Of a DNA stretch of 64,000 bases, positions 30,405 through 53,712 are shown piece after piece. The notes below the pieces were generated by a model, which saw nothing but the letters and a program-made list of their open reading frames with translations, had not been told where the DNA came from and did not search any database. The stretch is from a bacterium. GTDB taxonomy: Bacteria > Patescibacteriota > Patescibacteriia > SBBB01. Position 1 is the stretch's first letter, and each line of letters starts with the position of its first letter. A program made the position numbers and the translations under genes. The stretch lies in the NCBI GenBank assembly GCA_005239895.1, contig SBBB01000027.1, forward strand, positions 376 to 64,375, read 5' to 3'.

Positions 30405-30770
30405 TGTGATCCTCCTGGTTTTTACTTGCGTTTCCTTGACGCGAATAACTGACTCTTATGAGCAGCGCACTAGACATCTATCTGACTATTGGCAGGATTT
30501 AGCCATCCAATGCGCTGCTCACTACAATATCCAAACAATATTTATAAATTTACAAAGAACCTATATAATTAAGCCAAAATAATTTGGATTAAGTAAATTT
30601 TAACTTAATCACCATAGCACAAAATAAGAAAAAAGTCAAGAAGTGGTGGTGTCAACACACATGACAGTTTTTTGCAAGAATAAGCATAACTTAATTCATC
30701 CGCCAAGATTTAATAAGTAAATTGTAGGAGGGTGAATTTAGGAGGATAAATCCACTACAACTAAATACAA

Positions 30771-30856
30771 GTTTAAGCGGGTAAATTAGACAAAATTAGG
30801 TATATATTTTATAATATACTAGTAATTTTTAGTACAATTTTTAGTTAAAATATAAT
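30771..30856 (+). promoter_or_regulatory. 86-bp promoter-containing segment, copy A (-35 TTAGAC 30786-30791, 18-bp spacer, -10 TATAAT 30810-30815)
   Basis: About 93% identical to 31858..31943. Sigma70-like hexamers visible. Confidence 0.4.
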
Positions 30857-30858
30857 TT

Positions 30859-31119
30859 ATGACTCTACATAATTTAGTTAAAAAAAGATCTTACTTATTT
30901 TGGTCCACCAAAAATTATAAGGGGCTTTCTAAAGAAGCGGTTTTAGAAGGAGTTTTAAATTATGGAACCATGAAAGATGTGCAAGAGGTTTTCTCTATTT
31001 TAGGCATGAACAATGCGGCTAATATTTTTTATAAACAAATAAAAAATAAACGTAACAATTATCGCCCCGAAATAAAGAATTATTTTAAATTATATTTTAA
31101 AAAATATACACCCCGTTAG
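30859..31119 (+). CDS. small conserved partner protein of an AbiEii-like nucleotidyltransferase (putative antitoxin-like)
   Basis: 86 aa. Paralogous to 52808..53032 (shared LFW.T...L.K.A..Y...K...G pattern). Immediately upstream of the NTase. Confidence 0.4.
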   Translation: MTLHNLVKKRSYLFWSTKNYKGLSKEAVLEGVLNYGTMKDVQEVFSILGMNNAANIFYKQIKNKRNNYRPEIKNYFKLYFKKYTPR

Positions 31120-31148: not shown

Positions 31149-31811
31149 ATGCAAATTATACACAAAAAAATTAAACATATTATACCTTCAGCATCTAATG
31201 GGATGCATCCCGAAGTGTTAACTAAAAAACAAATTGAGCTATTGCCGCTGATTAAATTATTTTCTAGTAATTTTGGTTTAGTTGGAGGTACGGCGATTGC
31301 TTTACAAATAGGTCACAGAGGATCATTAGATTTTGATCTTTTTACTAATAAAAGATTTGATAATTTATCAATAAGGGAAAAGATTTTAAAATATGGAAAA
31401 ATAGAAAAAGTTTTGGTTGATCATAAAGACGAGTATACTGTTTTGATAAAAGGAACAAAAATAACATTTCTTTATTATCCTTTTCAGCTGGCATTTTCTA
31501 AAAATTTTAACAATATTATAAAAATGGCTGATCTTTTAACAATAGCAGCTATGAAAGCTTACGCTCTTGGTCGTCGAGCAAAGTGGAAAGATTATGTGGA
31601 TCTTTATTTTATTTTAAGTATTTATAGTATGGATAAAATTATTCAAAAAGCTGATAAAATATTTGGCTCTGAATTTGATCAAAAATTGTTTAAGGTTCAG
31701 TTGAGTTATTTTAAAGATATTGATTATTCCGAAAAAATAATTTATAGGGACAAATTTCAAACTAGTGATAATACCATTAAAAAAGGATTGTTAGATTTTA
31801 TTTTTAAGTAA
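31149..31811 (+). CDS. AbiEii/DUF1814-family nucleotidyltransferase (type IV TA toxin-like)
   Basis: GLVGGTAIALQIGHRGSLDFDLF N-terminal NTase motif. C-terminal R.KWKDYVDLYFIL motif of the AbiEii family. Confidence 0.6.
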   Translation: MQIIHKKIKHIIPSASNGMHPEVLTKKQIELLPLIKLFSSNFGLVGGTAIALQIGHRGSLDFDLFTNKRFDNLSIREKILKYGKIEKVLVDHKDEYTVLIKGTKITFLYYPFQLAFSKNFNNIIKMADLLTIAAMKAYALGRRAKWKDYVDLYFILSIYSMDKIIQKADKIFGSEFDQKLFKVQLSYFKDIDYSEKIIYRDKFQTSDNTIKKGLLDFIFK

Positions 31812-31857
31812 ACCAATAAAATTAATTAATAAAGTTTTAATACAACGAGGTTAATAA

Positions 31858-31943
31858 GTTTAGGTGGGTAAATTAGACAAAAACAGGTATATATTTTATA
31901 ATATACTAGTAATTTTTAGCACAATTTTTAGTTAAAATATAAT
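31858..31943 (+). promoter_or_regulatory. 86-bp promoter-containing segment, copy B (-35 TTAGAC 31874-31879, -10 TATAAT 31897-31902) upstream of aspS
   Basis: Direct repeat of 30771..30856. Confidence 0.4.
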
Positions 31944-31952
31944 GTATTATAC

Positions 31953-45098: not shown

Positions 45099-45644
45099 AT
45101 GTCTATAAAAATTACTTATTTTGTTCATGGCACTAGTATTGATAATGAAACAGAAATTTCATCTGGGTGGTCTGATGTTGGACTTTCAGAATTAGGTGTA
45201 AAGCAATCAGTTGATTTAAAAGAAAAAATTAAAGATAAAAAATTTGATGTTGTGTTTTGTTCGGACTTGAAACGAGCTGTAGATTCAGCAAAGCTAATAT
45301 TTGAGGGTGAAGTATCGATTATTCCTGACACGCGATTACGAGAGTGCAACTACGGCCTATATACTTCCCAGCCATCGAGTATTGTTGAGCCTATGCACGA
45401 AAAGAGGATAACCGATAAATTTCCAAATGGTGAGAGTTATGAGGATATAAAAGCAAGAATTAACGATTTTCTAAATTTTCTAAAACAAAATTATGATGGC
45501 AAAAGTATTGCTATAGTTGCCCATAAGGCTCCACAACTTGCATTTGATGTTTTACTTAAAGATAAAACTTGGGAAGAAGCGTTTAGGGAAGACTGGCGTA
45601 AAACAAAAGCCTGGAAACCAGGCTGGGAATATATTATGCGTTAA
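45099..45644 (+). CDS. histidine phosphatase family protein with RHG-to-VHG substitution
   Basis: KITYFVHGTS in place of the canonical RHG. Otherwise PGM-family-like (SDLKRA, IVAHKAP). Confidence 0.5.
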   Translation: MSIKITYFVHGTSIDNETEISSGWSDVGLSELGVKQSVDLKEKIKDKKFDVVFCSDLKRAVDSAKLIFEGEVSIIPDTRLRECNYGLYTSQPSSIVEPMHEKRITDKFPNGESYEDIKARINDFLNFLKQNYDGKSIAIVAHKAPQLAFDVLLKDKTWEEAFREDWRKTKAWKPGWEYIMR

Positions 45645-50918: not shown

Positions 50919-51251
50919 ATGCGTCGTAAAATTTACAACAAATTAATAAGAGATAAAATACCTGAGATTATTAAAAAGAATAAGGCTGTTCCTAAAGTTT
51001 TAGTTTTGAACGCTAAGCAATTCAAAATTGCGTTAAAAGAAAAACTAATAGAGGAAGCGAAAGAATTATTAGCAGCCAAAACTAATAAAGAAATTTTAAA
51101 TGAATTAGCAGATATTTTTGAGTTATTAGAGTCAATTGCCTTAAATAATAATATAACCATGAATCAAATTAAAAAACAAAAAGAGAAAAAGAAAAAAGAG
51201 CAAGGTGGTTTTGATAAAAAACTTTTTTTGAAATATGTTGATGAACTATAA
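50919..51251 (+). CDS. MazG-like nucleotide pyrophosphohydrolase (small all-alpha NTP-PPase)
   Basis: YNKLIRDKIPEII ... EE.KEL ... ELADIFELLE ... GGFDKK pattern. Confidence 0.55.
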   Translation: MRRKIYNKLIRDKIPEIIKKNKAVPKVLVLNAKQFKIALKEKLIEEAKELLAAKTNKEILNELADIFELLESIALNNNITMNQIKKQKEKKKKEQGGFDKKLFLKYVDEL

Positions 51252-51370
51252 GGATGCATAATTTTAAGTTTAATTTTTTTTGATTACAAGCATCAACTAC
51301 TCTTGACAAAGTGTCAATTATCCTGTATAATATATACTTGTTAGTTGAAATTTTGATTTAACAGGCTAAG

Positions 51371-51506
51371 GCGACGGTAGCTCAGCGGTAGAGCGCTTGT
51401 TCAGTATAGAGGAGAGTCACCGTCACACTTTTTGGTCGTAATTAATGACCGAAACTCTTTACGTTTTACGACAAGAGGTCGGGGGTTCAAATCCTCCTCG
51501 TCGCTC
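51371..51506 (+). tRNA. tRNA-like gene interrupted by a ~63-65-nt insertion in the anticodon loop (candidate intron; isotype unresolved)
   Basis: Canonical acceptor GCGACGG/TCGTCGC, U8A9, D-arm GCTC-AGCGGTA-GAGC, anticodon stem CTTGT (51396-51400) / ACAAG (51471-51475) separated by 70 nt, variable AGGTC, T-arm GGGGG-TTCAAAT-CCTCC. Confidence 0.5.
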
Positions 51507-51709: not shown

Positions 51710-52591
51710 TTAGTATAGTTCGAATTGTAGTTCAGGTTTACCAAACTCTTTTAAGGTGTGTTTAACCGAAGCTTCAGCTGCCGCACGGAGTTTGTTAGGA
51801 TTTCTGGTTAGTTCGTGTATATCCATATTAGGTGGCCAAAGAATATGTATATTCTCAGCATTATTTGCAAAATCAATTCCTTTAACAAAGTTTTGATGTC
51901 GCAAAAGTGTTTTTGTTTTTATAACACTGGTTAAGTGTGTTAAAAACAAATTTACGAATATACGTTCAGTGAAAGTTGCTATGTGTTTTTTTTCTTGGGG
52001 ACAATTTGGTAACACCAACACATGAGTTGGTGAAAAGTCTCTCATTACTTTTTGAATTGGAAAAGGTAAAGCTATACCTCCATCCATATAAAGACCATTA
52101 TTAACTTTTAAGGGTTTTTTGTATGCTAGGGGTATGGCTGAAGAAGCATATAGTGCTGACCAAGGTGATGGGTTGGCTTTTTTTACATCTAGAAAATGTC
52201 CTGTTCCGTTTATATCTGTTACTCCCACAAAAAAATCAGATGTTGTCCTGTAAACTGCATTGATATCTAATTTTTTAGATCCCATGGAAGTAGTATTTTC
52301 AATTATCGAGGCATTCATCAAGAAAGGAAAGTTTTTAAGGGATATATATTTTGAAGAGGCGAAAGGTTTATAGTAGATTGAATTACCTGTTTTAATTGAT
52401 TCTAGTCCTGCTAAATGATATGCTCCTACCCATGCTCCTGTTGAAATGCCTACGACAATGTCAACGGCATATCCTAGTCCCATAAGGTGCAACGCGTAAC
52501 AAGCTGCCGCGCTATTAACACCCAGATTACCTCCTCCCAAAATGAGGAGAAGTATTTTAATGTTTTTGTGCCGAGGATCATTAGCATCCAT
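51710..52591 (-). CDS. patatin-like phospholipase
   Basis: GGGNLG oxyanion motif, GISTGA (GxSxG) nucleophile elbow, DGG. ATG at 52591 preferred over the track's TTG at 52642. Confidence 0.75.
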   Translation of the reverse strand: MDANDPRHKNIKILLLILGGGNLGVNSAAACYALHLMGLGYAVDIVVGISTGAWVGAYHLAGLESIKTGNSIYYKPFASSKYISLKNFPFLMNASIIENTTSMGSKKLDINAVYRTTSDFFVGVTDINGTGHFLDVKKANPSPWSALYASSAIPLAYKKPLKVNNGLYMDGGIALPFPIQKVMRDFSPTHVLVLPNCPQEKKHIATFTERIFVNLFLTHLTSVIKTKTLLRHQNFVKGIDFANNAENIHILWPPNMDIHELTRNPNKLRAAAEASVKHTLKEFGKPELQFELY

Positions 52592-52770
52592 TAATTGTTT
52601 TTTCTTCCAAATCTGCGTAATTACAGTTTTTTCTGTGTTCAATGCATCCTCCTTTCTGGTCAGTTGTTTTTCTGTTTAGTTGTTAACACCGAAACGATAA
52701 AATTATAGTAGTATGTATTAAGTGACAAGTCAAGATCATAAATTGTGATATGGCATATCTAAATTTGAGA

Positions 52771-52799
52771 TTGACAATTTGAGTAGATTTTGATATAAT
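52771..52799 (+). promoter_or_regulatory. consensus sigma70-type promoter (-35 TTGACA 52771-52776, 17-bp spacer, -10 TATAAT 52794-52799)
   Basis: Perfect hexamers. ATG at 52808 lies about 8-9 nt after the -10, implying a leaderless or near-leaderless mRNA. Confidence 0.5.
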
Positions 52800-52807
52800 T
52801 TAATTAT

Positions 52808-53032
52808 ATGAAATTAAGACCAGAGTTATTTTGGGATACGAATATTAAAAATATTGATTTAAGAAAACATGCTCAGTATATTATTGAAAAAGTAGCTGAT
52901 TTTGGTCACGATAATGAAGTGCGCTGGGTATTAAATTTATATAGTAAAAAATTATTAAGAAAAGTTATTGCTAAATCTAGGTGTTTACGTCCCGAAACAA
53001 AAGCTCTATGGGTTTTACTATTAAAAAAATAA
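52808..53032 (+). CDS. small conserved partner protein of an AbiEii-like nucleotidyltransferase (paralog of 30859..31119)
   Basis: 74 aa. LFWDTN... pattern shared with the first copy. Confidence 0.4.
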   Translation: MKLRPELFWDTNIKNIDLRKHAQYIIEKVADFGHDNEVRWVLNLYSKKLLRKVIAKSRCLRPETKALWVLLLKK

Positions 53033-53046
53033 ACAATAATCAAGAT

Positions 53047-53712
53047 ATGGTTTTGGGTGATGTACATTGGCATTATGAAACATTACCGCGCAGTACAAAA
53101 AAGGCTTTTATTTTTTTGTCTGAACAAAAGTGGTTAAAAAAGTCAAATTGGTATTTAGCTGGTGGTACGGCTTTAGCTCTTTGGTGTGGCAATCGTAAAT
53201 CTTTGGATTTAGATTTTTTTATTAAAGATAAAGATTTTACTGACAATCAGGTCTTGAAATATTTTATAGGAAATAAAAATTGGAAACTTGAATTAAATAA
53301 AGAGAATACAATATTTGCAAAATTATTTAATGCTAAAATAAGTTTTATTAGTTATCCATTTTTTGAACCTAGACAGGATTTAGTGTGGCATGGGTCGGTT
53401 CGTGTATTGCATCCGATTGATATTGCAGTTATGAAAATTATAGCCATATCTCAGCGCGGTAAAAAGAGAGATTTTTTTGATTTATATTGGTGCGCTCATA
53501 ATATTGAACTTTTGACAAGAACAATTAAAAGACTTAAAGTCCAATATCCATTGGTTGTGCATAATTACCATCATATTTTAAAAAGTTTAGTATATTTTGA
53601 TGATGCAGAAAATGATCCTGAGCCAGAAATTTACTTTAATGCCAGTTGGAGTAAAGTAAAAAAGTTTTTTACTAAAGAGATTTCTATTATTGCGGATCGT
53701 ATTTTGCGTTAA
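53047..53712 (+). CDS. AbiEii/DUF1814-family nucleotidyltransferase (second copy)
   Basis: AGGTALALWCGNRKSLDLDFF and RGKKRDFFDLYW motifs. ATG at 53047 chosen (track ORF opens at GTG 52981, overlapping the small ORF). Confidence 0.6.
   Translation: MVLGDVHWHYETLPRSTKKAFIFLSEQKWLKKSNWYLAGGTALALWCGNRKSLDLDFFIKDKDFTDNQVLKYFIGNKNWKLELNKENTIFAKLFNAKISFISYPFFEPRQDLVWHGSVRVLHPIDIAVMKIIAISQRGKKRDFFDLYWCAHNIELLTRTIKRLKVQYPLVVHNYHHILKSLVYFDDAENDPEPEIYFNASWSKVKKFFTKEISIIADRILR

Follow-up and report, generated by a model that had tools for sequence, protein, structure and literature searches.

In a 64,000-nucleotide stretch of DNA from a member of the Patescibacteriota (GenBank assembly GCA_005239895.1, contig SBBB01000027.1, positions 376 to 64,375), referred to here as the window, two adjacent genes on the forward strand encode a very short protein of the DUF6922 family and a nucleotidyltransferase (NTase) of the DUF1814/AbiEii family. 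The small gene (52808..53032, +) encodes 74 amino acids (aa) with an isoelectric point (pI) of about 10 and is the proposed antitoxin or partner. The NTase gene (53008..53712, +) encodes 234 aa and is the proposed toxin. Both open reading frames (ORFs) were found where the original prediction, made from the letters of the window, had placed them. This pair is a real, widely conserved two-gene operon that occurs mostly in Patescibacteria. The GC content of the module (about 28-29%) is slightly lower than that of its surroundings (about 33%), a difference that is not diagnostic.

The NTase reading frame is open from a GTG at 52981 to 53712 in the ORF listing, and either of two ATG codons is possible as its start. 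The ATG at 53008 yields 234 aa, overlaps the small gene by 25 nucleotides (nt) and matches the Logan gene call; the ATG at 53047 yields 221 aa and matches the NCBI gene call. The second ATG exists in the window because this gene carries about 13 extra codons here. No obvious Shine-Dalgarno sequence precedes the ATG at 53008 or that at 53047. The GTG at 52981, which would give 243 aa, is not favored since homologs align only from about residue 6-8 of the 221-aa form onward, and since the start conserved across loci corresponds to the ATG at 53008. Residue numbers given below for the NTase are those of the 221-aa form.

The small protein matches the Pfam family DUF6922 (PF21956) with an E value of 1.9e-16 and 59.7 bits, against a gathering cut-off of 27. 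Its 48 close relatives, which are 64-100% identical to it, are all stand-alone proteins of 74-92 aa and all belong to DUF6922, and a profile search of 1.84 billion cluster representatives recovered 1607 DUF6922 clusters (50% identity) at E ≤1e-3. The family is predicted to have a compact fold, with a conserved LFWD motif. An AlphaFold2 (AF2) model of the 74-aa protein, with a predicted local distance difference test (pLDDT) score of 90.6, places helices at residues 22-32, 35-44, 47-56 and 62-73, and the protein is thus confidently predicted to be a four-helix bundle. PDB searches by sequence and by fold returned no solved relative of it, no Pfam or PADLOC model of AbiEi matches it, and NCBIfam holds no match for either the small protein or the NTase. 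Derivation of the small protein from a duplicated part of the NTase was rejected, as hhalign gave a probability of 0.1% for the two family alignments. The original prediction had held that the partner does not resemble a winged helix-turn-helix (wHTH) protein, and this agrees with the modeled bundle, which is neither wHTH nor AbiEi nor MenA1. It had also suggested that the partner is undescribed. This stands for its function and for its link to DUF1814, which are absent from the literature searched, about 8 million papers: no mention of DUF6922 or PF21956 was found there, nor of NetFlax together with AbiEii. It does not stand for the family as such, which Pfam already catalogs as DUF6922.

The second protein of the pair matches the Pfam family PF08843 (AbiEii) with an E value of 2.9e-17 and 63.9 bits, against a cut-off of 22.5, and is also matched by 13 AbiEii models of PADLOC. 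Residues G40, T41, S52, D54, D56, K130, R137, D142 and D145 are invariant among 26 homologs. The segment AGGT41ALALWCGNRKS52LD54LD56FF contains the Pol-beta NTase motifs I and II, namely hG[GS/T] followed after 9-13 residues by DxD. Toward the C-terminus, the block RD.FDL, in the region of the invariant K130, R137, D142 and D145, aligns with JHP933, and these residues are candidates for motifs III and IV of the family (the catalytic Lys and the R...RD..D block). The motifs named in the original prediction (GGT, SxDxD and K..R....D..D) are therefore real and without variation in this set of homologs, and with its catalytic residues so conserved the enzyme is expected to be active.

Structural comparison places the NTase among toxins of the DUF1814 family. 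Its AF2 model (pLDDT 91.8) is predicted to adopt the bi-lobed fold of MenT and JHP933 proteins. Foldseek comparison with the PDB gave JHP933 (4ok0, 4o8s), MenT4 (6y56) and MenT1 (8an5, 8an4) as the top matches, with E values of 5e-6 to 3e-5, a probability of 1.0 and template modeling (TM) scores of about 0.5-0.57. When the NTase family profile was compared with the PDB, JHP933 was the sole sequence approached (E 0.16), with G-x-T...DLDF and RD.FDL aligned.

The two genes are linked well beyond the window. One genome per species was scanned with the small protein, which produced 470 confirmed stretches, and 80 loci were kept; nearly all are from metagenome-assembled genomes (MAGs) of Patescibacteria, and a few are from MAGs of Coprothermobacterota and Troglogloeales. 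An NTase homolog or remnant lies near the small gene in 76 of these 80 loci, and a full-length NTase gene lies directly downstream of it in 67. A second set was seeded with the NTase and comprises the 80 best full-length matches on metagenome contigs. In 78 of them a DUF6922 gene lies directly upstream of the NTase, and the remaining 2 end at a contig edge, so that all 78 loci with upstream room carry the small gene. Distant members of the family follow the same pattern. Those inspected were from an Actinobacteria MAG and an Atribacteria MAG, together with a 127-aa form and a 183-aa form fused to a wHTH domain, and in all four an AbiEii gene (202-207 aa) lies directly downstream of DUF6922. 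These distant modules are each located between different housekeeping genes. The linkage is near-obligate, and its presence in both seeded sets and in the distant members indicates that the pairing is a property of the whole DUF6922 family. Co-occurrence of the small ORF with DUF1814 genes was one of the checks that the original prediction had proposed, and these counts bear its expectation out.

The junction between the genes is also conserved. In 60 of the 67 loci with a full-length NTase, the nearest NTase ATG precedes the small-gene stop codon by 25 or 28 nt, in a different frame, and the letters of this overlapping ATG come from the codons for a conserved Leu-Trp pair of the small protein. 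The original prediction had named a further finding that would speak against it, that the small ORFs are fragments of a longer fused NTase gene. This was rejected, because the overlap is out of frame and conserved, and one-ORF fusions of DUF6922 to AbiEii occur only as singletons (4 among the 150 representatives listed, each a singleton cluster on 1-2 contigs). Such rare fusions suggest that the two proteins are in physical contact.

Some members of the family carry an additional N-terminal segment. For instance, P0143 has a weak match to a wHTH of the HTH_11/DeoR type ahead of DUF6922, and in P0103 the segment ahead of DUF6922 resembles a ribbon-helix-helix domain by eye. Another example is found in P0116, P0120, P0130, P0140, P0156 and P0170, from other lineages, which share an N-terminal extension of about 45 aa with the pattern M.I..K.I.GK.YAYL..R.G..V..YLG; this recurring segment is also written KIGxKxYAYL..R.G..V..YLG. 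It has no Pfam match and may be a small beta-sheet DNA-binding module. Antitoxins are usually assembled from a constant module preceded by an optional one that binds DNA. The same combination in this family, with DUF6922 as the constant module, suggests that toxin contact is made through DUF6922.

Expression of the small gene appears to follow an unusual design. A sigma-70-type promoter (52771..52799, +) precedes it, with the -35 hexamer TTGACA at 52771-52776, a 17-nt spacer and the -10 hexamer TATAAT at 52794-52799, which agree with the consensus at 12 of 12 positions. Perfect promoters of the form TTGACA-N17-TATAAT occur twice in the window, against 0.04 expected from shuffles. A TG at 52791-52792, followed by one base and then TATAAT, makes this an extended -10 element, and the ATG at 52808 follows the -10 hexamer after 8 nt. 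The description of the promoter in the original prediction is fully confirmed, and the TG extension adds to it. From the -10 spacing, transcription is predicted to start at 52806..52808 (+), on the A of the ATG or no more than about 2 nt away from it.

This spacing is maintained among homologs. A -10-like hexamer, defined by at least 5 of 6 matches to TATAAT, was scored in the 68 small-protein-seeded loci with enough upstream sequence. In 54 of the 68 loci such a hexamer has its end 5-10 nt upstream of the small-gene start codon, and in 50 of these it is TG-extended. The commonest gap is exactly 6 nt (33/68), which leaves no room for a Shine-Dalgarno sequence, and any other offset from 0 to 59 nt is found in at most 4 loci each. 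Several of the 14 exceptions repeat the design one in-frame ATG further upstream (e.g., L001, L008, L035 and L051). Among control ORFs of at least 150 codons from the same loci, such a hexamer lies at 5-10 nt in 47 of 438 and is accompanied by TG in 24 of 438 (about 5%); in the AT-rich window the corresponding counts are 17 and 1 of 60 control ORFs. The NTase-seeded metagenome loci have the leaderless-type -10 element in 42 of 66 cases, 37 of them with TG, and the arrangement is present in 3 of the 4 distant members; those from the Actinobacteria and Atribacteria MAGs are among these three. The -35 element is often weak in homologs, which fits reliance on the extended -10 element. Transcription of the small gene as a leaderless mRNA, as had been proposed for the window, is thus well supported by comparison of upstream regions, and this leaderless design seems to characterize the DUF6922-NTase gene family. 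Cortes and colleagues reportedly observed in 2013 that toxin-antitoxin (TA) modules are over-represented among the leaderless transcripts of Mycobacterium tuberculosis. Mycobacterial leaderless TA operons are similar to the present module in that their first gene, the antitoxin, starts at the transcription start. They differ in that the design here is family-wide, occurring across many Patescibacteria and in three distant members, and is rare in other ORFs of the same loci.

In a few other genes of the window, for example 45099..45644 (+), the first ATG likewise follows a -10-like hexamer after 5-10 nt; in this example TGGTAGAAT is followed by 7 nt. The aspS gene (31953) has TATAAT and then 9 nt before its ATG. 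Judging from these spacings, some housekeeping genes of the organism may be leaderless too.

A palindrome with 12-nt arms, TTTGATATAATT-A-AATTATATGAAA (52789..52813), covers both the -10 element and the small-gene start codon. This palindrome could represent an operator or have arisen by chance in AT-rich sequence, and the upstream regions of homologs show no evident conservation of it. It is relevant to the proposal that DUF6922 is solely a transcription regulator of the operon, a small helical DNA-binding domain that does not act on the NTase, any neutralization being due to something else. The basic character of the small protein (pI about 10) and the place of its gene at the head of the operon, as with many repressors, favor this as well; it is nevertheless considered quite improbable.

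The window encodes a second module of the same architecture. A strongly diverged DUF6922-like small gene (30859..31119, +; 86 aa) matches the family with an E value of 0.0049 and 16.8 bits, below the cut-off, and is followed by an AbiEii-family NTase gene (31149..31811, +; 220 aa) with an E value of 2e-9 and 38.2 bits. The two NTases of the window are 33% identical (E 4e-14). The two small proteins are too diverged to be aligned by BLASTP; hhalign relates the second to the DUF6922 alignment A3 with a probability of 96.9%, this alignment containing the sequence itself as 1 of its 104 rows. Homologs of the second small gene adjoin NTase genes in two of the related loci (L068 and L117). The paralogous pair is real but old. 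The earlier claim of a paralogous module holds for the gene pair and for the NTases, whereas the similarity claimed for the small proteins is not recovered by BLASTP and the family match of the second one is weak.

The second module also bears signs of mobility. A 92-nt direct repeat, 93% identical between its copies at 30769..30860 and 31856..31947 (spaced 1087 nt), exactly brackets this cassette. Copy one extends through the AT of the small-gene ATG, and copy two stops 6 nt short of the ATG of aspS (31953). Since the repeat carries the aspS promoter region, it looks like an insertion scar, in which this region would have been duplicated on insertion of the cassette. No flanking repeats of note surround the module at 52808..53712. 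In other genomes, modules of different subfamilies adjoin one another in tandem or convergent orientation (L068, 888..2085; L117, 3001..4043; L018, 4001..5141; L023, 4001..5263), sometimes together with an orphan small gene. In L068, for example, a homolog of the second module of the window (54% and 60% identity) lies directly before an orphan small gene of the first type. Tandem modules and an insertion scar are traits of mobile TA or defense cassettes.

DUF1814 toxins pair with several unrelated antitoxins, comprising COG5340 (AbiEi, MenA3 and MenA4), COG4861 (MenA2) and the 68-aa MenA1 (PMC7450476; PMC3968373; PMC10435456). In the COG4861 case, the antitoxin is described as far exceeding its toxin in size (PMC7450476). 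The MenT toxins act on tRNAs, to whose 3′ ends they add nucleotides (PMC11375011; bioRxiv 10.64898/2026.01.19.700257). MenA1, MenA3 and AbiEi reportedly neutralize their toxins by inducing auto-phosphorylation at T39, S78 and T65, respectively (PMC11375011; PMC10435456; bioRxiv 10.64898/2026.01.19.700257).

Among these systems, M. tuberculosis MenAT1 (MenT1 Rv0078A, MenA1 Rv0078B) is similar to the window module in that a short-form DUF1814 NTase directly follows a very short partner without a DNA-binding domain. MenT1 (8an5, 8an4) is among the best structural matches to the window NTase, at a sequence identity of about 12%, and its phosphoacceptor T39 has a position in the G-[ST] motif similar to that of T41 here. 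The partners are distinct: MenA1 consists of one long helix and a short second helix and is partly disordered (PMC10435456), whereas DUF6922 is modeled as a compact four-helix bundle with LFWD. The original prediction had raised the prospect of a new short antitoxin for a DUF1814 toxin. Short length is not new in itself, as the 68-aa MenA1 provides a precedent (PMC10435456). AbiE and MenAT3/MenAT4 share with the module the toxin family PF08843, its catalytic motifs and the gene order, with the partner gene first and the NTase gene second, overlapping or closely spaced. AbiEi/COG5340 proteins, however, have an N-terminal wHTH and a C-terminal domain and are about 200 aa or longer. The window partner is not such a protein, so the module is not AbiE in the strict sense, and the window NTase is about 60-80 aa shorter than AbiEii and MenT3. 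The closest solved structure is JHP933, a DUF1814 NTase from the plasticity zone of Helicobacter pylori (4o8s, 4ok0; Foldseek E about 5e-6, TM 0.55), with an identity of 16-18%. The layout of MenAT systems, in which the DUF1814 toxin gene lies directly downstream of the partner gene, is present in the window. No known MenA homolog was detected by PDB sequence matches or by fold matches to the 8an5 MenA1 or to AbiEi/MenA4, COG4861 not having been searched directly.

On balance, the module is probably a toxin-antitoxin-like bicistronic operon of the AbiE/MenAT type with a new, uncharacterized partner family, a reading held with moderate confidence. The pattern of gene decay is informative in this regard. 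An intact small gene lies beside an NTase gene whose catalytic core is deleted in 5 of the 80 small-protein-seeded loci (L002, L012, L019, L050 and L065), and in a further 6 of 80 the cognate NTase is missing or a remnant (L048, L068, L079, L080, L018 and L023). Some of the small genes that lack an NTase adjoin a second complete module of another subfamily. The reverse, an NTase that is intact but has no small gene, did not occur in any of the 78 NTase-seeded loci with upstream room; the NTase-seeded set consists of the best full-length matches and is thereby biased against degraded genes. Decay that is one-sided in this way (11 loci versus 0) is as expected if the NTase is harmful without its partner, and it speaks against two other roles for the small protein, that of a mere enzyme helper and that of a toxin.

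The first of these roles belongs to the explanation in which the NTase is not a toxin but a conditionally useful enzyme, acting in RNA 3′-end tailing or repair or in nucleotidylation of small molecules or antibiotics, with DUF6922 as a positive cofactor or specificity subunit. Weaker Foldseek matches include ANT(2'')-Ia, LnuA and CCA-adding enzymes, both proteins are basic as expected of nucleic-acid binders, and a compact folded partner that is occasionally fused to the enzyme would fit an obligate subunit. Such an enzyme would, however, hardly account for the 11 loci that keep the small gene after loss or deletion of the NTase. Moreover, the patchy distribution, the tandem arrays, the apparent insertion scar and the presence of several diverged copies in one small genome resemble what is seen in selfish or defense cassettes, and the best family and fold matches are to the toxin clade of AbiEii, MenT and JHP933. 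This explanation is accordingly regarded as unlikely. The second role, that of a toxin, would reverse the polarity of the system as in type VII MntA-HepT, with the NTase serving as the antitoxin by modifying the small protein. NTase antitoxins are known in MNT-HEPN systems. Intact orphan small genes, as present in 11 of 80 loci, would be lethal if their product were toxic. In addition, the small protein has no HEPN match in Pfam and the 74-aa sequence no Rx4-6H motif, and the window NTase belongs to the DUF1814 toxin clade rather than to the minimal MNT clade of type VII systems. Reversed polarity is thus hardly credible.

Several observations weigh against the toxin-antitoxin interpretation, in addition to the bias of the NTase-seeded set noted above. 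The roles of toxin and antitoxin are ones that we infer. The NTase is only 12-18% identical to characterized MenT and JHP933 proteins, and a PDB sequence search with it returned no significant match. T41 of the GGT motif is invariant and occupies the G-[ST] position, and its equivalence to T39, S78 and T65 is drawn from motif position only. Many antitoxins are acidic or partly disordered. The small protein is basic (pI 10.1), as is the NTase (pI 9.5), and it is predicted to be fully folded. As a stand-alone protein it has no recognizable DNA-binding domain, so classical autoregulation is not evident. Lastly, the one-ORF fusions may be real or may be frameshift artifacts.

If the toxin-antitoxin interpretation is correct, the window NTase most plausibly works like MenT, by analogy with its characterized relatives. 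The conserved spacing suggests that the extended -10 sigma-70 promoter would initiate transcription on the small-gene ATG or immediately beside it and so yield a leaderless mRNA. Since the NTase gene overlaps or closely follows the small gene and has no obvious ribosome-binding site of its own, its translation is probably coupled to that of the small gene, which would keep the partner in excess. By homology, the NTase would be expected to add nucleotides to RNA 3′ ends, most likely the acceptor ends of tRNAs as MenT1, MenT3 and MenT4 do, and so to halt translation. The DUF6922 protein would neutralize its cognate NTase through direct binding. More speculatively, it might push T41 toward the bound nucleotide and thereby cause the toxin to phosphorylate itself, as reported for the MenA1/MenT1, MenA3/MenT3 and AbiEi/AbiEii pairs.

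A gene for a patatin-like phospholipase (51710..52642, -) is divergent from the module, and the original prediction had combined the two into a small defense islet. The patatin was rejected as a conserved associate of the module: no tblastn match to it was found in the 80 + 80 related loci, making it a neighbor in 0 of 160, and no PADLOC model matched it. Its absence from related loci and from PADLOC leaves no evidence for a defense islet. A phage origin of the module was likewise rejected, as a scan of viral contigs with the small-protein alignment found nothing and neither protein has a match in PHROGs.

Elsewhere in the window, a full-length Rfam match to a tRNA (51371..51505, +; 135 nt, 49.7 bits) contains about 63 extra nt in the region of the anticodon loop. 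It was not called by ARAGORN, and its insert falls far below the length of a group I intron. The other perfect TTGACA-N17-TATAAT promoter of the window (51303..51331) is located 40 nt upstream of this unusual tRNA, just upstream of which a 110-aa ORF (50919..51251, +) has a weak match to PRA-PH, a MazG-like pyrophosphohydrolase (E 1.6e-4).

A broader proposal can be formulated from these features, in which DUF6922 is an unrecognized and structurally unrelated class of antitoxin for tRNA-modifying toxins of the DUF1814/MenT type. It would be the main partner of short-form toxins in Patescibacteria and would neutralize them through auto-phosphorylation of the GGT threonine. Leaderless expression of the antitoxin would tie the TA balance to the capacity of the cell for leaderless initiation and so form a built-in sensor of translational takeover by phages. 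Taken as a whole, this proposal is doubtful. If true, the auto-phosphorylation mechanism would be common to at least three unrelated antitoxin folds. Research on DUF1814 toxins such as AbiEii and MenT is active, and current studies contend that their unrelated antitoxins all induce auto-phosphorylation. A third partner family, and a large one (1607 clusters at 50% identity, 470 confirmed stretches in species-representative genomes), would offer a direct test of that claim. An antitoxin role would also give a function to Pfam DUF6922. PADLOC-type tools require AbiEi in order to call AbiE, and would thus probably miss DUF6922-NTase modules. The TA and defense content of Patescibacteria, whose small genomes are often called defense-poor, may therefore be undercounted, and the conserved leaderless design of these modules would provide a clean natural case for leaderless initiation in uncultured lineages.

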